From: Parcubacteria group bacterium Gr01-1014_30 | GTDB lineage: Bacteria > Patescibacteriota > Minisyncoccia > Minisyncoccales > 2-12-FULL-40-12 | NCBI GenBank assembly: GCA_007376185.1 | Contig: VMFS01000008.1 | Location: 1 to 50,692 of the forward strand | Direction: 5' to 3' | DNA length: 50,692 nt | Shown here: positions 3,512 through 42,837 of the stretch, one piece after another | Layout: each line of letters begins with the position of its first letter | Numbering within the stretch: the stretch's first letter is position 1 | Notes under the pieces: model-generated | Database searches by the model: none | What the model was told of the DNA's origin: nothing | The model's input: only the letters and a program-made list of their open reading frames with translations | Made by a program: the position numbers and the translations under genes

Positions 3512-3541
3512 TTGACAAACGAATCTATTATGTGTTATGCT
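3512..3541 (+). promoter_or_regulatory. sigma70-type promoter for the orphan ORF
   Basis: TTGACA (3512-3517), 18-nt spacer, TGnTATGCT; followed by boxA-like GCTCTTTG. Confidence 0.6.
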
Positions 3542-3612
3542 AGCGCATCGGCTCTTTGGGAATTAAATATCGACGAGGCCGGCAACGCCGATCGAGGATG
3601 GAGGATGAGAGA

Positions 3613-3912
3613 ATGGATAATAATCAGGTCGTTGGAAAACCACTTCATGTCACGATCGGTGAATGGTTCGATCAGGCCCTCAACGATGATCAGCCTTATG
3701 CGGCGTGTATGCTTCTGATGATCCTTCAAGGGAGCAAGCTACCGGCGAAGGCGGCTCAAGAGGTGGTTGCCGTTCTTGAATCTCCGAAGATCGCGAAGAA
3801 GATAGAGAACGTTATCACAGTGTTGACGGCTGATGGCGAGGAGAAAGACGATGGTTATGAGCTTGAGGCGGAACTTGCCAAAACGATTGTTGACCTCCGA
3901 GGCCGATCGTAG
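3613..3912 (+). CDS. Hypothetical helical protein (about 99 aa)
   Basis: Open frame; GGAGG 8 nt before ATG 3613; own promoter and downstream GC hairpin. Confidence 0.65.
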   Translation: MDNNQVVGKPLHVTIGEWFDQALNDDQPYAACMLLMILQGSKLPAKAAQEVVAVLESPKIAKKIENVITVLTADGEEKDDGYELEAELAKTIVDLRGRS

Positions 3913-11666: not shown

Positions 11667-12542
11667 CTAAGAAATTGTGGATTCCAGGTAAGTACTGGGC
11701 TTAACTTCCGCCAGGAAGTCGGCAATCTCAGGAACAATGCACCTGCCGTTCAAGTAAAAATAGCAAACGCCCCGCGAAGTGTAATGGGGCTGATCTTGGA
11801 GTGGTTCAGCCGCAAGCTCTGCTGCGCGTCGGTGAACCTCCACATCTTCCTCTGGCGCCAAGCTGTCGTTGTAAACTTCGCAGCCGTAACTCGTTGCAAT
11901 CGCCCCAGCCAGAAACGCCTTAACCAATTTAGGATAAGACTCTCTGAAGTGTTTAATACAGGCCAGAGAGCGTTTGGCCGGTTCAAAGAACTCTTTCAAG
12001 CTCCGGCCGTTTGTACGCAATACTGCAAGCATTTCTTGTAAACCGCTAGTGGGCAAGTCGTAACGAATGCTCGCTTCAACAGCTACGACCTCCCGCTTTA
12101 TAACTTGGCCGGAATTTCCCAAAGTTTTTAATCTGTCAGAATCCACGACCAAATTATCCGGCTTGTAAAAAACAGCCGGAATCCCTAACTGTCTCAAGGC
12201 TTTGGCAGAGGCCTCACAAATTTGCCTTCTCAAATCGTCCAGCTTTGTCGGAAAATGCGAACGCGGTCCGGCAAGCGTGAAAACAATGTAACTATCGTCC
12301 AGATACACTGCTTGGCCGCCCGAGAGCCGACGCATTACTCCAATGCCCCTCTTTTGGCACTCGGCCAAGTCAACGTCTAGGGCTATATTCTGGGAACGAC
12401 CCACCAAAACAGAGGGAAACCATCTGGTAAAAGCTAGGGTAAATTCTCCTTGAGCCGCCTTTTCAAGTAGGAACTTGTCAAGAGCAGTGTTGTACAAAGC
12501 GTTTGCCGGCGGCAAATCCAAAATGCGGCACTTTTTTGCCAT
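11667..12542 (-). CDS. Lipoate-protein ligase A family protein
   Basis: SVLVGRSQ, VMRRLSGGQAVYLD; next to the pdh genes; AAAGGAGGTGA just upstream of ATG 12542. Confidence 0.8.
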   Translation of the reverse strand: MAKKCRILDLPPANALYNTALDKFLLEKAAQGEFTLAFTRWFPSVLVGRSQNIALDVDLAECQKRGIGVMRRLSGGQAVYLDDSYIVFTLAGPRSHFPTKLDDLRRQICEASAKALRQLGIPAVFYKPDNLVVDSDRLKTLGNSGQVIKREVVAVEASIRYDLPTSGLQEMLAVLRTNGRSLKEFFEPAKRSLACIKHFRESYPKLVKAFLAGAIATSYGCEVYNDSLAPEEDVEVHRRAAELAAEPLQDQPHYTSRGVCYFYLNGRCIVPEIADFLAEVKPSTYLESTIS

Positions 12543-12557
12543 ATTCACCTCCTTTCT

Positions 12558-21822: not shown

Positions 21823-22964
21823 ATAAATATCTCTATCTTTGCTTTGGCGCGGAGTTCGGCTATAACTTCTTGCAGCTCAACCTGGAGTTTTTGGGAAATA
21901 ATAGATTGTTCAATTTGTTCTCGTACTTCAGTAAGTTCTTGCGTTTCTTGGGCGGGGAGGCCTTCGTAGAAATCTTTCACTTCCTGTTCCTCGGCCACTA
22001 TACTTCTTTCTTGGATCAAGATGCCAAAATACTTGTCAAAAATAACCATTTTTTCTATCTCTTTTTTCAGTTCTTGACGAGAAGTTTCTTCCTGGCTGAG
22101 GGCTTGTTCAAACTCTTCCTCCGTGGGAAACTGCGCCAAGATTTGCCCAAACTGATTTTCAACTTCCGCCTCGTCCGCCGCAACTCCTCTTTGGTTCGCG
22201 TCCTGGAACAAGAGAACTTCGTTTATCATTAAGTCCAAAACCTGACGCGCTTGGACAGTGTTGACTTGGGCAGGTTCGGTCTGCAGCATTCTTTCAAGGC
22301 GTGAATCAAAAACGTCTTTGGTAATTTTTTCTCCGTTTACTACTGCCACGGCCTTTTGCGACGCAAAAGGTAGAACAGGAGAACCAAATATAATGAACGC
22401 TGCAACCACGGAGGCCAGAGCTACTATGGCGAATGACGCTATAGCCGGTTTTCGCCAAAAGTTTGCTAGCCAGCCTGAGGACATTCGGCTGAGCTCAGTT
22501 AAAGCCCCTGCCGAAGGGTCATTTTTTTGCTCTGTGTATTCCAGGCGATAAAACTTGCGGTTACTATACACCCCCCGTTTTTTAAGCAAAGAAAATCCTA
22601 GTTTTTTGTAAAAGTCGCCCGTTTCGTACTCGTAAAAGGCGTAGGCGCGCAGGGCTTGGACTTTTTGTTCTTTTGCCGCGGACTTGGCAAACTCCACTAA
22701 CTTTGTGCCGATGCCCCGACCCCGAAATTTCTCCGCAACGGCCAGCGTCTCAATATACATTATATTGTCGGCCTTCTTTCTCAAGCTGATTACGCCTACA
22801 ACTTGGTTTCTGTCCTCGGCAACGAAGTATTCTCCTTTTTTAATCTGGCTTTTGACAAACTCCTCGTCCGCCCAAATAAATCCTGGGACGTCCAAGCGAA
22901 GCGCGCCGATGATTTTTAAAATGTTTTTTCTGTCTTTCTGAAGTGCTTTTCTGATACCAACCAT
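21819..22964 (-). CDS. GNAT acetyltransferase fused via a TM helix to a SurA-N-like chaperone domain
   Basis: FRGRGIGTKL acetyl-CoA motif, FYKKLGF; hydrophobic segment; VAVVNGEKIT...VLDLMINEVLL. Confidence 0.75.
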   Translation of the reverse strand: MVGIRKALQKDRKNILKIIGALRLDVPGFIWADEEFVKSQIKKGEYFVAEDRNQVVGVISLRKKADNIMYIETLAVAEKFRGRGIGTKLVEFAKSAAKEQKVQALRAYAFYEYETGDFYKKLGFSLLKKRGVYSNRKFYRLEYTEQKNDPSAGALTELSRMSSGWLANFWRKPAIASFAIVALASVVAAFIIFGSPVLPFASQKAVAVVNGEKITKDVFDSRLERMLQTEPAQVNTVQARQVLDLMINEVLLFQDANQRGVAADEAEVENQFGQILAQFPTEEEFEQALSQEETSRQELKKEIEKMVIFDKYFGILIQERSIVAEEQEVKDFYEGLPAQETQELTEVREQIEQSIISQKLQVELQEVIAELRAKAKIEIFI

Positions 22965-23016
22965 AAGTCCATTTTACATGTTTTTTGCTAGAGGGCAACC
23001 CCTACAGGGTGGGTAC

Positions 23017-23045
23017 TTGACAAATCTAAAAGTATATGCTATAAT
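23017..23045 (+). promoter_or_regulatory. Consensus sigma70 promoter with extended -10
   Basis: TTGACA-17 nt-TATAAT preceded by TGC; boxA-like TTCTTTGAAAA about 25 nt downstream. Confidence 0.85.
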
Positions 23046-23049
23046 GGCT

Positions 23050-23586
23050 TATAAGCGGAAAATAAGAGAGTTTCTTTGAAAATAATAAAGCAATAGAGAG
23101 AGGGGCAAAATTACTGCGTAATTTTGCGGGTTCTAACCTTGGGGAGGTTATATGTTAAACCCTGGGCTTGCTGACCCTTCCTTTTAGGAGGGGTCAGCAA
23201 GAACTCGCAAAGCGAGTTAAATGCGGCCTTCTCTTGGCCGCTTATTTAGTTCTTTCAGCTGAGTGGCACAACCTTCCTGAGTTTATCAAGGGAGGGCGCA
23301 GCCCCGGCACAAGGGCCAACCCTTGTCAACACCTGGTGTTGACAAGCGGCCAGTCACCCGCCTTCGCTCTGCTTCGCAGAGCTTCGGCGAGGTAAAAAAT
23401 TGAGTGCTCCTGACTTGCCTCGCCGAAGCTCATGCGGAGGCGGGACCCGCGAGTCGGGACCGGAGAAGAAAAGATTGTTCCTCGGTCTCGGCTCGCGAGG
23501 AGCCCCGCACCAGAACAAGTTCGGTGCGGGGCAGGCCGAACAGCACACAACAACATCGCCCGCCAGAGGCTGGCAGAGGAGGAGAG
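23050..23586 (+). ncRNA. Putative long structured leader or ncRNA
   Basis: Back-to-back hairpins, e.g. CTTGCTGACCCTTCC/GGAGGGGTCAGCAAG, CTTGTCAACAC/GTGTTGACAAG, GCCCCGCACC/GGTGCGGGGC; no credible long ORF. Confidence 0.45.
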
Positions 23587-23793
23587 ATGACAGAGCAGAA
23601 GAAAATACCGTACCGCTACCTTGTTGGCTGGATGGCACAAAACGATAGAGGGTTCGCTCACGGAACCCTAATCGTCAACCAATCCCACAGGATTCAAAAC
23701 GACGAGGATTTGATTGCCATACGAGACTTCGTCAGGAAAGAGGTAGGGCACCCGACGGCTTACATCACGGCGTTCAGCCGTTTCGAGGAGTAG
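23587..23793 (+). CDS. Small hypothetical protein (68 aa)
   Basis: AGGAGG before ATG 23587; globular composition MTEQKKIPYRYLVGW...AFSRFEE. Confidence 0.7.
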   Translation: MTEQKKIPYRYLVGWMAQNDRGFAHGTLIVNQSHRIQNDEDLIAIRDFVRKEVGHPTAYITAFSRFEE

Positions 23794-23832
23794 AGGCGCT
23801 GACCTGCGCCTCCCCGCGCAACGCGGGGCAAA

Positions 23833-23938
23833 GGGTTGAGCACTCAGCCCAAGTCAAAGTTCAGGGGAGGCGAGCAAATTCGCTTCGCCTCCCACCCTTT
23901 TCCGAGTTCCGACACAAAGTCGGGATTCAGAAAAGGGG
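23833..23938 (+). repeat. Conserved post-ORF structured module, copy C
   Basis: GCACTCAGCC; GGAGGCGAGC/GCTTCGCCTCC; CCGAGT...ATTCAG stem. Confidence 0.6.
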
Positions 23939-23986
23939 ATAGAAGTTCATTGAAACGCCGCCAGAGGGCGGCAGAAAGGAGGGCCC

Positions 23987-24622
23987 ATGAAGGCCCTAAT
24001 GGTCAGCGCCGCCCTCGCGGCGGCAATGGTAGCGGCGCTTCCGCTCGAAGCGGAAGCGCAGTACGGCGGCTACTACCCCACGCTTGAGGCGTGGGGTAGG
24101 GCCGGGGGGTACGGGTACGGCGGGTACGGTGGCTACGGCTACGGGTACCCGTACCGGGTCCTGTGGCAGGCCCCGGGCGTCAAGTTCCACTTGGAACTGG
24201 TGCCAGAGGACGAGATCGCCCTCGTCAAGAGGGGAATCGTGACGGTTAACGGGGCCGAGGTTGGCCTCGTAAATCGGCACGACGGCTGGTGGAACGCCCC
24301 CATCCAGGTGGCCTCAGGCCATCATGAAGTGGGGGTTGTTCTGGAAGACGGTCGCGTCTTCCAGACCTCAGTATTCGTGCAGCCGTTTCAAGTGCTGCAC
24401 GTGTACCTGCGGTTTCCGCCGGTTGGATCCCAGCCCTCGGCGCCACCACCCGCTCCAGCGTCCTCCCCGCCGGAGGCCGCGCCGCCAGTGCCGCAGGCCC
24501 CGGCTCCCAGACCGGCGCCTGCGCCGGCGCCGCCTGCCGCGGCGCCCGCGGCAGACGAGTGTGCTCACCTGTCGCAATATCCAACCCTTTTGGGTTGGTG
24601 TGCGGCTGGTCGGCGTAAGTAG
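23987..24622 (+). CDS. Secreted protein: signal peptide, Gly/Tyr-rich segment, PEGA-like beta domain, Pro/Ala tail
   Basis: AAAGGAGG before ATG; AEA signal cleavage; VTVNGAEVG...SGHHEV. Confidence 0.75.
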   Translation: MKALMVSAALAAAMVAALPLEAEAQYGGYYPTLEAWGRAGGYGYGGYGGYGYGYPYRVLWQAPGVKFHLELVPEDEIALVKRGIVTVNGAEVGLVNRHDGWWNAPIQVASGHHEVGVVLEDGRVFQTSVFVQPFQVLHVYLRFPPVGSQPSAPPPAPASSPPEAAPPVPQAPAPRPAPAPAPPAAAPAADECAHLSQYPTLLGWCAAGRRK

Positions 24623-24662
24623 CCAGCCAAGTTCCGGACTGGCGACCGACGCAAGTCGGAGT

Positions 24663-24785
24663 ATACACCACGCGCAGGCAAAGCACTCGCCGACGTGTGG
24701 GAGGAACAAAAGGAGGAAGCAACTGCAACACGCTTCCTCCCCAACTCCGAGTTCAGGTATGCGAATACGTGGATTCAGAGTGGGG
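24663..24785 (+). repeat. Conserved post-ORF structured module, copy A
   Basis: CCACGCG/CGTGTGG, GAGGAACAA, GGAGGAAGC/GCTTCCTCC, CTCCGAGT/ATTCAGAG. Confidence 0.7.
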
Positions 24786-24889
24786 AAACCCCAGTAGTAG
24801 AACGCTTCGCGTTCACTACAGGGCAGGGTTCTTTGCAAAATAAAAAAACAGCCAAGGACGGCTGAAAAGATAAATTGATTTTGAACTGA

Positions 24890-25174
24890 TTATTTCTGTT
24901 TTGCTTCAAGCATGCTTACGCGCCTTTCCAGGATGACAAACTCATCGCGTGAAACTTTTTGCTTCAAATCGTTTTTTATGACTTCAAGGTCAAGTTTAAT
25001 AACTTCCAAAGTTTCGCTGTTGGCCACTACTTGTTCTGCAACGGTTTGAATTTGGCCTTTCAAATCTTCAGTCATAACGTCAAAATGACGCTTGATTTCT
25101 CCAGTCTTTTCGTCAAAATGCCGCTTGGTTTCGTCTTTATACTCGCCTAAAATTTTTCTGATGTCGTCTACCAT
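24890..25174 (-). CDS. Small coiled-coil hypothetical protein
   Basis: Heptad pattern, EFVILERRVSMLE; TGCTACCAT -10 box 7 nt upstream of ATG. Confidence 0.75.
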   Translation of the reverse strand: MVDDIRKILGEYKDETKRHFDEKTGEIKRHFDVMTEDLKGQIQTVAEQVVANSETLEVIKLDLEVIKNDLKQKVSRDEFVILERRVSMLEAKQK

Positions 25175-25378
25175 ATATTTAATGGTAGCAATTGGAAGTT
25201 AAATGTCAAATGCAATGCTTCAACTGAACTCACGAGTTTTGCTCGCGGGTTCTGAGAGGCAGTTCTTTCAAAAGTTTCGCGGTCTTGGATAAGCCCTGAG
25301 CTTGTAGAAGGGTTTGTCCGAGGCCGCGATGACCGCGGCGCTCGACAGTTCCCGCCGAAGGCGGGGGAGGAGAGAAGT

Positions 25379-26083
25379 ATGGTAGGACCGTTTTCGGTTT
25401 TGATTTTTCTTGCGATGATCGCCGTGTCAACGGCGAACGCGCAGACTCCAGACGATGACCAAGGCGGCGTTACCGCCTCGGCCAACGCCTGGCTCGACCT
25501 CTTCGTCGGACCCGACGGCGACGTGGTTTACCCCCAGTATATGTTCAGAGTGGCGACGGAGAACATTGTTGTGACGGGCTACGGATTCTGGGAACGGGCG
25601 CCAAATGAGCCCGACTTCACAAACCACGTGAATACGGTCACCTACCAGCCATTTTCAGCTTTATCTTTGCGAGCTGAAACCGGCGGACGTACTCGGGATT
25701 TCGAGATTCGCTCGCCTCGGGGCGGTGCGATTACCATTCCGCCAGCGGCGTTCTTCCAGGTCGGGCCGCAAGTGAACCTGCACCGGTTGGGCAAGTTCAA
25801 GGGACTGGACTATATGGTTCTCTCCTACCTGCCCCACCTGGCCGGGATCCGCCCAAACAATACCATCCTCGCGGGCGGCACCACGCGGCTCCCTGTCATG
25901 CGGGGAATCGCGGTCTCGGTGGAGGGCTACCGCCGGTTCTTCCCGGAGGGAGCGGACTACGCCGAGTACTGGTTTCTCGTGCACCCCACTCGTACCAACG
26001 GGCACATGGGCTTTGGCGTCTTCTTCCTCCAGGATGGGAGGGCGAAGAGTCTCGGCTTCGGCGTGCGACTGGAGCCGTTGTAG
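25379..26083 (+). CDS. Secreted protein, probable beta-barrel fold
   Basis: GGAGGAG upstream; signal peptide ending ANA; alternating hydrophobic strands, C-terminal LGFGVRL. Confidence 0.72.
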   Translation: MVGPFSVLIFLAMIAVSTANAQTPDDDQGGVTASANAWLDLFVGPDGDVVYPQYMFRVATENIVVTGYGFWERAPNEPDFTNHVNTVTYQPFSALSLRAETGGRTRDFEIRSPRGGAITIPPAAFFQVGPQVNLHRLGKFKGLDYMVLSYLPHLAGIRPNNTILAGGTTRLPVMRGIAVSVEGYRRFFPEGADYAEYWFLVHPTRTNGHMGFGVFFLQDGRAKSLGFGVRLEPL

Positions 26084-26094
26084 CGGAAAGTAGA

Positions 26095-26218
26095 ATACAA
26101 ACCGCGCATGGCATGCATTCAGCCATGGCGCGGGAGGAACAACAAGGCGGAGGCAATAAACAGCGCCTCCGCCCCATCTCCGAGTCCTCAAACAAAAATT
26201 TGAGGGTTCAGAGCAGGG
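26095..26218 (+). repeat. Conserved post-ORF structured module, copy B
   Basis: CCGCGC/GCGCGG, GAGGAACAA, GGCGGAGGC/GCCTCCGCC, CTCCGAGT/GTTCAGAG. Confidence 0.7.
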
Positions 26219-26271
26219 AAGTAAGTTAAAGATTAGAGGCCCGCCTTCGTCCTTCGGGCTACGGCTAGGCA

Positions 26272-26346
26272 AGGCCGGAGGCGCTTTTGCGGCGGGATAG
26301 AACCCTCTCTCCCTGCCGTGGGAGCGCCTGCGGCCTTTTATTTTTT
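26272..26346 (+). terminator. Long hairpin plus U tract closing the island
   Basis: AGGCCGGAGGCGCTT...GAGCGCCTGCGGCCTTTTATTTTTT. Confidence 0.6.
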
Positions 26347-26375
26347 GCCAAACAGCTCTTGATTAGGTGCGGGGG

Positions 26376-26404
26376 TTGACAAAAGTTTTTGGCAGAGTTA
26401 ATAT
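26376..26404 (+). promoter_or_regulatory. rRNA promoter
   Basis: TTGACA-17 nt-TAATAT; boxA-like GCACTTTGAAAA at about 26584-26595. Confidence 0.7.
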
Positions 26405-26810
26405 GCAATTAGAAAGGTTAATAAGCCAAAGATATGGCAAGAGAAAAAGAGACAAAGTGTAACTGTGGAGGCGGTTGCGGATGCGGCGGTAACTGCGGTT
26501 GCTAATGATTGGTTGATAGAAAAAGTTAGGTTGAGAGCTCACGAGGTCTCTTCGTGGGTTTTTGTTTCCGCCTGATTCGGAAAGCACTTTGAAAAGTTAA
26601 AATTAACAGCTGGTAATATCATAAATACCGACCCACTTCGGAAGGGGGTCGGGGAAACCCACAGGTTTCCCCGTGTAGGAAAACAGGCTTTCGCCGAAAG
26701 GCGAAAACGTTAGAAACCGAGGGTTTCTAAAGAGCGGCGTAGTGAAACGAGCCGCGACCTGATTATATATTACCACTGAGTCAGTTTTTTAGAGTTGCCT
26801 CGACATACTT

Positions 26811-28448
<1,638 letters not shown>

Positions 28449-28764
28449 TTTTAAAGTTGTCGACTGGAATTGGTTTGCGAGAATTCTCAAACTAACTCCA
28501 AGGTGTTGGTCTTTGCACCTAAAAGGAAGACCTCGAGGCAACTCTAAGAAACTTACTCAGTAACTCAAATCAGTTCGCGGCACGCGCGATTATTAAATGT
28601 CGCTTTCGCGACCGCGCTTAGCCGTTCTTTAGAAACCCTCGGTTTCTAACGTTTTCGCCTTCGGCGAAAGCCTGTTTTCCTATACGGGGAAACCGGATGG
28701 TTTCCAGGTCGGGAGTTTCCGCTCTTGGTAAAATTAAGCAGATTGTTTTTTGCAGCTAAAGGCT

Positions 28765-28856: not shown

Positions 28857-28930
28857 GGGCGTGTAGTTTAGTGGTAAAACACGGTCCTGATAAGACCGAA
28901 TCCCAAGTTCGATTCTTGGCATGCCCACCA
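28857..28930 (+). tRNA. tRNA-Ile(GAT)
   Basis: GGGCGTG/CATGCCC acceptor stem, CGGTC-CTGATAA-GACCG anticodon arm, GTTCGA T loop, encoded CCA. Confidence 0.96.
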
Positions 28931-41431: not shown

Positions 41432-42205
41432 ATGAAAGGGCCTGATTTTCAAGAAGAGAAAAAGTTGTGGAGAAGGGGATATAAATATGTTGTGTGTTTG
41501 GACGAAGTAGGTCGCGGCTGTTTGGCTGGACCCGTGGTCGCCTGCGCCGTAATGATAATAAATCCCAAGCACGAAGCACGAAATCCGAAACAAATCCCAA
41601 TGCTCCAAATTCGAAATTCCAAACGATTTGGAAAATTGAAAAATTGGAATTTAGATATTGTTTCGAATTTCGATATTCGAATTTCGAATTTAAAGATTAG
41701 AGATTCCAAAAAACTTTCGCCAAAGGCACGGGACATGTTTTACAAAATTCTGATTTCACACCCAGATATTAAGTGGGGAACAGGCAGGGTTTATCCAAGA
41801 GTGATTGACCGCATCAACATTTTTGAAGCAACAAAGTTGGCAATGGCCCGAGCTATACAAAATTTAGCGCAAAAATATCAACTACAAAAAACAAACGATC
41901 GTTCACAAATTGTAGGTAATGGTTTTTTTATTTTGGATGGGAATATGAAGTTGAACCTGCCGATTCCGCAAAAGGCGATTGTGAAAGCGGATGAAAAAGT
42001 TTTTTCCTGCGCGGCGGCCTCAATCATTGCTAAGGTTAGCAGAGACCGTTTGATGCGAAAATACCATAAAAAATATCCCGAGTACGGCTTTGACAAACAC
42101 AAGGGCTACGGAACAAAACGCCATTTAGTTGCGTTAAGAAAGTTCGGGCCGTGTGAGCTTCACAGGAAGAGCTTTTGTTTGGCTTTTTCAAAGGCGGGGT
42201 TTTGA
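41432..42205 (+). CDS. rnhB: Ribonuclease HII with two repeat-derived in-frame inserts
   Basis: DEVGRGCLAGPVV, DSKKL, AAASIIAKVSRD, HKGYGT, LHRKSF. Confidence 0.94.
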   Translation: MKGPDFQEEKKLWRRGYKYVVCLDEVGRGCLAGPVVACAVMIINPKHEARNPKQIPMLQIRNSKRFGKLKNWNLDIVSNFDIRISNLKIRDSKKLSPKARDMFYKILISHPDIKWGTGRVYPRVIDRINIFEATKLAMARAIQNLAQKYQLQKTNDRSQIVGNGFFILDGNMKLNLPIPQKAIVKADEKVFSCAAASIIAKVSRDRLMRKYHKKYPEYGFDKHKGYGTKRHLVALRKFGPCELHRKSFCLAFSKAGF

Positions 42206-42206
42206 C

Positions 42207-42234
42207 TTGACAAGTGGTTTTGCTGTGCCATACT
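42207..42234 (+). promoter_or_regulatory. sigma70-type promoter
   Basis: TTGACA-16 nt-CATACT with TGn extension. Confidence 0.55.
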
Positions 42235-42312
42235 AAAAGTAGCGCAAGTTGTAAATTAAATAACTGAAAAAACCCGCCCGAAGCTTTAGCTTTTGGGGAA
42301 AGGAGGCCAGAC

Positions 42313-42837
42313 ATGGCTAGCAGAACGCGTCTGTTCGTCGCGGCGCTGGCTTTAATGGCTGGTGCCTGCGTAGGGAGCGGGAATCCAGCCTCGCCAACGA
42401 CGCCTATTATAATCCCGCCGGGTGCAATCGTGCATTGGGTGCCAGTGGCCGGGTCCAACCGACCATTCCGGTGGTGGATCGTATCACTTGATCCGCCAAA
42501 GGGCTCGCGACTCGAAGTCGGCCAGAGTTTTAAGGCCATGATTGGATGCGAAGGGCCGAGCGGATACAGCTACGCTCTGAAGGAGGAGTTTTCCAGCGGT
42601 CCAGGTACTGACTGGATTAGGATAACATCCGGTCAAAGCATGGGGCTGATAAGCGATTGTTTTCGTGGTAGTATGGAGGGTCTTAACAGTACCCTAAGGT
42701 CAACAGGGTACCCTGACTTATCCCACTATCGCTTCTCGGTCTGGACTGAACCGGGGGAGATTATAATAAACCCCGATATTCGTCCGCCGGACCTTGTCGT
42801 TGACGAGCGGATCGACTGGACGATTAATAGGGGGTGA
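42313..42837 (+). CDS. Putative lipoprotein, orphan
   Basis: AAAGGAGG upstream; lipobox-like MAGAC followed by SGNPASPTTP linker. Confidence 0.72.
   Translation: MASRTRLFVAALALMAGACVGSGNPASPTTPIIIPPGAIVHWVPVAGSNRPFRWWIVSLDPPKGSRLEVGQSFKAMIGCEGPSGYSYALKEEFSSGPGTDWIRITSGQSMGLISDCFRGSMEGLNSTLRSTGYPDLSHYRFSVWTEPGEIIINPDIRPPDLVVDERIDWTINRG

Follow-up and report, generated by a model that had tools for sequence, protein, structure and literature searches.

Strong Shine-Dalgarno sites on an accessory gene class in a Parcubacteria genome whose 16S rRNA gene lacks the anti-Shine-Dalgarno tail

What could read strong Shine-Dalgarno (SD) sites in a cell whose 16S rRNA gene ends without the anti-SD (aSD)? 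The question is raised by a contig of 50,692 nt from Parcubacteria group bacterium Gr01-1014_30, a small groundwater bacterium of the parasite type, hereafter the window (the whole stretch of DNA analysed). The window is contig C8 of an assembly of 769 kb in 11 contigs, 97% complete, against which gene absences were judged. An initial annotation, made from the letters of the window, described the unusual 16S end together with six SD-led genes, and proposed that these genes were recent acquisitions, that a second 16S copy retained the aSD or, speculatively, that the mRNAs were built for host ribosomes.

The 16S rRNA gene and its 3′ tail

The 16S locus comprises the following features.

26376..26404, plus strand: predicted sigma-70 promoter of the 16S gene, TTGACA-17-TAATAT (from sequence)
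26584..26595, plus strand: boxA-like motif GCACTTTGAAAA of the 16S leader, taken as the native standard for the motif upstream of SD genes (from sequence)
26811..28451, plus strand: 16S rRNA gene, sole copy in the assembly (Rfam RF00177, 1355.8 bits; whole-genome blastn)
28438..28450, plus strand: 16S 3′ tail GGATCATTAAATT after helix 45, without CCTCC (from sequence; identical in a contig of run X1)

The gene terminates in GGAUCAUUAAAUU, and GGATCACCTCC is absent from both strands of all 11 contigs. Among forty relatives surveyed from the order, a 16S match was obtained for 23 and the tail could be read in 18; CCTCC was found in none of the 18 (one has ATCTCCT) and in none of four further order genomes. 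The 16S gene without an aSD tail is thus confirmed as the initial annotation had it, with GGATCATTAAATT at 28438-28450 and a loss that is order-wide. The search for other 16S copies, which it had proposed, was made by whole-genome blastn and detected no further full-length copy in the 11 contigs; a second copy retaining the aSD is not supported, given the single full copy and the order-wide absence of the tail.

From run X1, a Logan contig spans 28414-28655 with 0 differences, although X1 may be the source sample and hence is not independent. Further X1 contigs, likewise with 0 differences, run from the purine operon into the SD genes (22489-24694) and from the barrel gene into the 16S promoter (25115-26674). 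Among the 18 runs listed, the stretch is present only in X1 (DNA); RNA run X2 matches conserved 16S parts only. A second rrs or a mis-assembled 3′ end was rejected in view of the single copy, the relatives without CCTCC and the X1 contigs without differences.

Loss of the aSD, described in the initial annotation as known in some lineages, has already been published for Parcubacteria, according to the relevant passages of Tsurumaki et al. (2022, RNA 28:1041, PMC9297842). In addition, uL1 (PF00687) was not found in the 97%-complete genome, while 14 of 14 control genomes were positive. The combination fits the published Parcubacteria subgroup, described in those passages as having, like this genome, a 16S without CCTCCT and no uL1; placement in Parcubacteria/Minisyncoccia is further suggested by the 769-kb genome size and by homologs in named Patescibacteria. 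The passages concern rRNA only and contain no SD-bearing gene class, SD conservation or boxA leaders.

Several other features of the rRNA genes were observed. Just past the promoter, the 16S leader holds a 23-aa Cys/Gly-rich ORF (26434-26505, plus strand) with six cysteines, metallothionein-like by eye. A palindromic repeat of ∼130 nt, of which there are many dispersed copies, is inserted in 16S helix 6 (26898-27028); one copy lies in frame within rnhB/RNase HII (41560-41691) and another in the 23S region (C9:61855-62014, 94% identical over 160 nt). In this genome the rRNA operon is split: only tRNA-Ile follows 16S (window 28857-28930), and 23S is located on another contig (C9 ∼58800-62150) with its own promoter and boxA-like site.

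SD-led genes, their leaders and their products

The SD units of the window and their parts are as follows.

3512..3912, plus strand: SD unit with promoter 3512-3541, weak boxA-like motif 3551-3563, SD GGAGG 3600-3604 and 99-aa ORF 3613-3912 (no Pfam match)
11667..12555, minus strand: lipoate-protein ligase 11667-12542 (PF21948) with SD AAAGGAGGTGA at 12545-12555
23017..23082, plus strand: promoter TTGACA-17-TATAAT at 23017-23045, then boxA-like TTTCTTTGAAAA at 23071-23082 (from sequence)
23053..23586, plus strand: 534-nt multi-hairpin leader ending in a hairpin and SD AGGAGG 23577-23582 (z = −10 vs shuffles)
23587..23793, plus strand: SD-led 68-aa ORF (no Pfam match)
23945..23982, plus strand: boxA-like GTTCATTGAAAC 23945-23956, hairpin at ∼23957, SD AAAGGAGG 23975-23982 (from sequence)
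23987..24622, plus strand: SD-led 211-aa ORF with signal-peptide-like N-terminus and GC3 of 0.75 (from sequence)
24620..24790, plus strand: 3′ trailer common to the unrelated SD genes C1:6897, C1:7842 and window 25379 (73-91% identity)
25262..25372, plus strand: boxA-like GTTCTTTCAAAA 25262-25273, hairpin 25351-25367, SD GGAGGAG 25366-25372 (from sequence)
25379..26083, plus strand: SD-led 234-aa protein, predicted outer-membrane-type beta-barrel with signal peptide (structure model)
42207..42837, plus strand: SD unit with promoter-like TTGACA at 42207, hairpin, SD AAAGGAGG 42299-42306 and 174-aa ORF 42313-42837 (from sequence)

All six SDs noted in the initial annotation are present where it placed them and score −9.3 to −12.9 kcal/mol against the canonical tail; the other 35 of the 41 called window genes score −5.8 or weaker. 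The two GC hairpins that it placed at ∼23561 and ∼23958 both exist, the first being imperfect.

Genome-wide, strong SDs occur on ∼40 of 658 genes (∼5% of the genes). We compared 40 SD-led ATG genes with 618 confident others, as called by a simple gene caller of our own (starts may be wrong, GTG/TTG starts are missed); the 40-gene class includes ∼3 false calls and ∼4 housekeeping genes. In a count free of gene calls, AGGAGG followed by ATG at a spacer of 4-5 was observed 30 times vs 7.6 expected from other spacings (p = 6e-10), and AAGGAGG-N3-6-ATG has 20 occurrences vs 5 for the reversed pattern. The SD genes are spread over at least 9 of the 11 contigs and share scaffolds.

Two aSD-less relatives, G033 and G034, have SD classes of 32 and 40 genes. 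SD frequency by gene class, a check named in the initial annotation, separates core from non-core genes: 2 of the 254 genes common to both G033 and G034 are SD-led vs 36 of the 306 found in neither. The class of ‘orphan’ genes proposed there is real and non-core, but its members are not true orphans, since homologs were found (15 for the 25379 protein, 10 for 23987 and 29 for the ligase, all at ≤68% identity). GC3 of the SD class is 0.60, 0.38 and 0.35 vs 0.47, 0.28 and 0.27 for the genome (this genome, G033 and G034, respectively), so that the class tracks each genome. By its sequence, the genome has two expression grammars, with its own genes SD-less and ∼40 accessory genes SD-led, many of the latter downstream of a consensus promoter and an rRNA-type boxA-like motif.

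Pairing with the genome's own 16S tail gave no gain for the SD class at any of four tail lengths, and a variant SD matching this tail was rejected for lack of enrichment. A −10 box adjoins the start in none of 40 SD genes vs 153 of 521 others; because the box often stands directly before the start, many non-SD genes may use leaderless or short-leader messages, as this sequence pattern suggests. Hydrophobic N-termini (12/40 SD genes vs 67/269 non-SD non-core genes) are not clearly enriched, and enrichment of signal peptides or lipoboxes in the SD class was not shown.

Most SD genes stand alone behind a promoter 50-540 nt upstream (TTGAC[AT] in 16/28 vs 49/370). A k-mer search of their leaders produced GCACTTTTACAA, which is near the boxA-like word of the 16S leader and also near the gamma-proteobacterial boxA consensus GYTCTTTAANA given in passages of PMC5725501 (the consensus here is G[CT][AT]C[TA]TT[TGC]A[AC]A). 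By sequence comparison, this motif downstream of the promoter appears to be the same as that in the rRNA leader. It was found at 12 of 31 SD genes vs 0 of 370 others, the motif having been derived from the SD set itself. Among 17 strict intergenic hits, 11 lie directly before an SD gene, one lies in the 16S leader and one precedes an operon with an SD-led second gene. Of the nine distinct units that combine a promoter with boxA, eight run directly into an SD gene and one into an SD-led ORF on C1 that a stop breaks after 18 codons; boxA units with a decayed SD are almost absent. The motif held weakly in the hold-out genome G033 (3/29 SD genes vs 1/311), where an unseeded motif search returned the boxA-like word GTTCTTTTGAAA, and failed in hold-out G034 (1/35 vs 3/252), whose SD genes adjoin an element that is present in 10 copies and has a terminator at its end.

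Hairpins of ≤−9 kcal/mol are located just before the SD in 13/37 SD genes vs 24/370 others, and a terminator is located downstream of 15/37 SD genes vs 67/618 others. Unrelated ORFs have common 5′ leaders and 3′ trailers (73-96% identity). For instance, the promoter and boxA unit at 23017-23082 has a 90% identical paralog at C1:9066-9000, the spacer at 23945-23982 has 84% identity with a leader on C1 that belongs to an unrelated SD gene, and parts of the 534-nt leader are dispersed palindromic repeats. NusB is encoded (PF01029, E = 2.5e-33); Rho (PF07497) was not found in the 97%-complete genome. With a boxA in the 16S leader and no Rho found, boxA need not mean export.

Other arrangements of such elements were also seen. 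Locus L028 (C1:6700-9070, minus strand), a paralog of the window 23017-24790 scaffold, bears unrelated ORFs. The first SD-led one encodes a lipoprotein-type signal and is cut short by a stop after 18 codons, beyond which the frame stays open for another 89. An element of 100 nt, a possible pseudoknot followed by a long hairpin (window 23102-23222), has copies 75-78% identical at C2:56406-56630, C6:47775-47869 and C9:34413-34485. In G034, tandem arrays of small SD-led ORFs (L067:11300-17800 and L081:11100-16950) have a conserved element of ∼55 nt before each ORF, in 10 copies, whose terminator end overlaps the next promoter. Integron cassettes were rejected for these arrays since attC boxes did not fit by eye, and a regex match of the G034 element with window 23129 is probably coincidental.

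Pfam searches with 36 SD-led proteins gave 10 convincing matches: LplA, RNase J, polyprenyl synthase, NUDIX, PyrF, PyrE, SPFH, SLT, OmpA-like and response regulator. An eleventh product is a CDP-alcohol phosphatidyltransferase. For PyrF, PyrE and the polyprenyl synthase, all SD-led, the same genome also encodes paralogs without an SD, and a second RNase J-like gene lies on C2. The lplA gene is the sole LplA/B gene of the genome and is located between a glutaredoxin-like gene and pdhA.

The 25379 protein is predicted, by structure modelling, to be an outer-membrane beta-barrel with a signal peptide. Its AF2 model is all-beta (pLDDT 92); every one of the 14 PDB structures that Foldseek matched at E ≤ 0.001 is an outer-membrane barrel, with low TM of 0.24-0.36, and its Atlas model matches CopB (TM 0.73). 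Named members of its family are Patescibacteria. The 23987 protein, whose 10 homologs have 47-68% identity over residues 20-150, could be PEGA-like, which we treat as a lead only (nearest Atlas clusters PEGA, Acidobacteriota, score 0.89). The 42313 protein has a lipoprotein-type signal as read by eye, which the regex did not match. BamA, Lgt and LspA were not found in the 97%-complete genome.

On the minus strand of window 1254-22964, a large cluster of genes for de novo purine synthesis is intermixed with a pyruvate dehydrogenase (PDH) cluster, which is unusual for Patescibacteria. The purine cluster includes two PurP-like DUF1246/1297 genes, and all genes there are SD-less except lplA.

Persistence of SD sites among orthologs and across the class

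The lplA gene is present in 2 of 300 order genomes. In G002, a genome of the same family whose 16S is not in the assembly, the order grx-lplA-pdhA-pdhB is kept at 58% aa identity. Identity at four-fold sites is 0.49 for lplA and 0.58 and 0.37 for its neighbours (near-saturated silent sites); the SD is kept with a different spacer (−10.3). In G144, which has a tail without CCTCC, the lplA SD scores −8.2. At their ATG starts, the neighbouring PDH and glutaredoxin genes score no stronger than −5.2. An exact-word search for lplA in a genome-contig collection gave no match.

The pyrE set consisted of 80 loci. We sought 16S tails for 50 genomes and could read 28, 13 without and 15 with CCTCC. An SD core of at least 4 nt precedes pyrE in 12 of the 13 aSD-less genomes, while ∼1.1 would be expected if the sites were neutral (median four-fold identity in these genomes 0.43; background SD core in 76 of 659 genes), and in 10 of 14 scorable aSD-bearing carriers. 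Six of the 13 ‘aSD-less’ carriers retain a 3-base UCC remnant; the seven carriers without it all have the SD core, mostly weak (−5.6 to −10.7). In the own order, six of seven stand-alone pyrE copies with a clear start score −6.0 or stronger (47-74% identity). Two aSD-less Kaiserbacteria in a supported clade keep the pyrE SD at four-fold identity of 0.51. Neutral decay of SDs in orthologs, the outcome that the initial annotation had set against its own proposal, is not what was found: the lplA and pyrE SDs are kept at near-saturated silent sites.

For the whole class we took 201 genomes with 106 readable tails, sorted into tail types by eye (kin are not independent), and measured the excess of AAGGAGG-N3-6-ATG over the reversed control per Mb. 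The median excess is 9.5 for a perfect aSD (40 genomes, 18 families), 21.1 for a near-perfect one (n = 17), 25.0 for a partial one (n = 15) and 20.6 for no aSD (34 genomes, 23 families). By family, with own-order genomes pooled, the values are 16.3 for none vs 11.3 for perfect (p = 0.90). Within the own order the excess is patchy, with a median of 3.3 per Mb in 17 aSD-less genomes and values above control in 9 of the 17. By this motif count, it is clear that loss of the aSD does not make the SD class smaller.

In the 25379 family, SD-like starts (−5.6 or stronger) occur at eight of nine metagenome loci, three of them near-identical, at 41-61% identity. Several loci lie among Patescibacteria-like core genes. 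Two further SD families were found in none of 300 order genomes, and their one match in the class (G402, partial tail) has an SD of −10.2.

The loss of the aSD, the SD class, its conservation and, in this genome, its tie to boxA are shown here by sequence analysis. Separately, the prfB frameshift site CTT TGA C (C10:43390-43420; L087 and L068 in the other two genomes) has a small hairpin directly upstream in all three genomes, but only in this genome does the stem contain an SD-like word.

Candidate readers of the SD sites

The explanation that we favour, though tentatively and as somewhat short of probable, is that the SD-led mRNAs are kept untranslated in the parasite and are read by ribosomes of the host cell. 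Of the proposals in the initial annotation, the speculative one on host ribosomes came out of testing as the best-fitting candidate. Selection on SD sequence and spacing needs an anti-SD, and the host would be the nearest source of one. The boxA-like motif fits host reading because boxA marks RNA made apart from translation, and a diderm host would fit because the products need BamA or Lgt/LspA, neither of which was found in the parasite.

We infer Nus binding, transfer and host translation, which could be arranged as follows. NusB-NusE would bind boxA and treat the transcript like rRNA; a transcript so marked would be made uncoupled from translation and kept off native ribosomes. In E. coli suhB, boxA represses translation from up to 100 nt away, as passages of PMC5725501 describe. 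The 5′ hairpins and shared 3′ trailers may stabilise the SD-led transcript. The mRNA, or self-contained cassette DNA, would reach the host cytoplasm at the attachment site, where host 30S subunits would recognise the SD by pairing. Translation there would yield envelope proteins (barrel, lipoprotein-like, OmpA-like, lytic transglycosylase) as well as second copies of PyrF, PyrE, RNase J and polyprenyl synthase. These host-made products would remodel the host, as phage auxiliary genes do. As for delivery, VirB4 (PF03135) was not found, with a control positive in only 1 of 14 genomes, and no route was identified.

Several observations count against host reading. As the sole ligase beside PDH, behind a native-style gene, lplA suggests use inside the parasite. 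The pyrF-pyrE pair is a recent import with a mixed tree, two SD families occur in 0/300 order genomes, the own-order SD excess is patchy, and the boxA motif was weak in G033 and failed in G034. Hydrophobic N-termini not clearly enriched, one broken SD ORF and the UCC remnants belong to the same side.

A stronger version, which we hold with more doubt, is a virus-like programme: boxA-tagged, hairpin-protected, SD-led mRNAs from dispersed genes would be made in the parasite, shielded from its ribosomes and delivered into the host, whose translation would turn them into envelope proteins and duplicate metabolic enzymes, with the aSD loss as a sorting device and the SD as an address label. The parasite ribosomes would have given up the anti-SD and so be orthogonal to SD-led messages. 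If this were true, the SD would identify host-acting genes in any genome of the class.

Rather unlikely, in our view, is that the parasite reads the purine box with its own ribosomes, which would manage without an aSD by means of an adaptor (a protein or a Nus factor) or an mRNA channel that favours purines; boxA and SD would then form an internal regulon for accessory genes. The single-copy lplA co-located with PDH, the presence of NusB and the tie of boxA to the SD class all agree with such a reader, as does helix 26 beside the SD helix, reported in passages of PMC9297842 to be highly conserved in Parcubacteria. However, the SD class does not pair with the own tail, and its SD sequence and spacing match canonical aSD geometry. 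The prfB sites of the three genomes have the hairpin, not an SD, in common, and the barrel and lipoprotein-type proteins could not mature without BamA, Lgt and LspA. CsrA and bS21 were not found (the control for bS21, PF01165, was positive in only 6/14). Two specific readers were rejected: CsrA as a GGA reader, since it was not found in the 97%-complete genome, and a trans-acting anti-SD RNA, since no conserved free CCUCCU RNA stood out by eye among 64 intergenic CCTCCT sites.

The prospect of a mobile cassette pool spread among Patescibacteria by natural competence, with SDs selected in aSD-bearing lineages and left as neutral relics here, is about equally slim. The pool draws on the presence of ComEC, on the SD-class GC3 above the genome mean, on SD families absent from the order and on one broken SD gene. 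The pyrF-pyrE cassette is a recent import: its DNA is 83-91% identical to other Patescibacteria and it is patchy, being present in 9/300 order genomes and 0/4 family genomes. In its tree, carriers with and without an aSD are intermingled, so that selection may in part have taken place during transit. Passages of PMC12455944 state that HGT in Patescibacteria comes mostly from other Patescibacteria. Against neutral relics, the SD of syntenic lplA persists although the gene has diverged at silent sites as much as the genes beside it, and the two Kaiserbacteria keep the pyrE SD at four-fold identity of 0.51; boxA units with decayed SDs are almost absent, SD-class GC3 tracks each genome, and aSD-bearing genomes of the class are no richer in SDs, so that no larger reservoir is visible. 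The proposal of recent acquisition thus applies to some units (pyrF-pyrE and two other families, but not lplA) and does not account for the class as a whole, because SDs persist in orthologs at near-saturated silent sites and the pyrE donors are largely aSD-less themselves. In the pyrE tree, nine Verrucomicrobia/Chthoniobacterales genes (L130, L140, L142, L144-L146, L149, L163 and L169), none with an SD, form a clade among Patescibacteria (support 92, unstarred).

Entry of host ribosomes or 30S subunits into the parasite, by cytoplasmic continuity or scavenging, and translation of the SD class there would explain lplA beside PDH together with SD selection, and host-cell invasion has been suggested for a DPANN parasite (bioRxiv 10.1101/2023.02.24.529834); we nevertheless judge it quite improbable, as it leaves barrel and lipoprotein-type products without BamA, Lgt and LspA unexplained. 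An artefact (mis-assembled 16S end, unassembled second rrs or foreign DNA binned in), for which one could cite an assembly 97% complete in 11 contigs and a sole confirming run that may be the source sample, is hardly credible given CCTCC in 0/18 and 0/4 order relatives, X1 contigs bridging 22489-24694 and 25115-26674 with 0 differences and SD genes on at least 9/11 contigs with shared scaffolds.

Organisms without an aSD in general have no SDs, according to passages of Amin et al. (2018, PMC6107228); the bulk of genes here is alike, but a minority class keeps strong SDs, apparently under selection. Bacteroidetes and this genome are alike in that most genes are SD-less and few have strong SDs. 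In Bacteroidetes, rpsU is reportedly an exception. There the aSD is present but masked, being sequestered by bS21, bS18 and bS6 (Jha et al. 2021, PMC7797042), whereas here it is gone from the 16S gene and bS21 was not found. The boxA/NusB-NusE-NusA-NusG-SuhB system has boxA in rRNA leaders and suhB mRNA (passages of Baniulyte et al. 2017, PMC5725501); likewise, boxA-like motifs are located here in the 16S leader and in 5′ leaders before SDs, and NusB is present. Unlike in that system, Rho was not found, about a dozen accessory genes and not one Nus-factor gene are involved, and binding is only putative.

Searches of the open-access literature brought up no paper that describes such an SD class in Patescibacteria, or its boxA leaders, or translation by a host; the passages of PMC13059738, PMC10746230, PMC12641178 and PMC9723584 are not relevant to the SD class. 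The aSD loss is already known; what is out of the ordinary is an apparently selected SD class that has boxA leaders but no native reader. The present analysis adds that this SD class coexists with an aSD-less 16S in one assembly, tests its orthologs against their divergence at silent sites, compares SDs by tail type throughout the class, and reports barrel or lipoprotein-type products without maturation machinery. We found no counterpart to an SD class apparently under selection though own ribosomes cannot pair with the SDs. Any reader of these SDs would be new, whether host ribosomes (which would mean mRNA delivery from one bacterium to another), ribosomes captured by the parasite or a reader that needs no aSD. 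Promoter, boxA and SD mark ∼5% of genes as candidates for host-acting functions, and the class makes it testable how Patescibacteria act on hosts.

Phage genes, including auxiliary metabolic genes, are self-contained cassettes with a host-type promoter, SD and terminator. The SD class resembles phage auxiliary genes in its self-contained cassettes, duplicate metabolic enzymes and envelope proteins; unlike phage genes, the SD cassettes belong to a cellular organism and lie one by one at scattered places in its chromosome. The class also has a stop codon preference: TAG ends 22 of 40 SD genes vs 133 of 621 others (p = 8e-6), and this bias, absent from G033, is seen again in G034 (12/40 vs 56/432).
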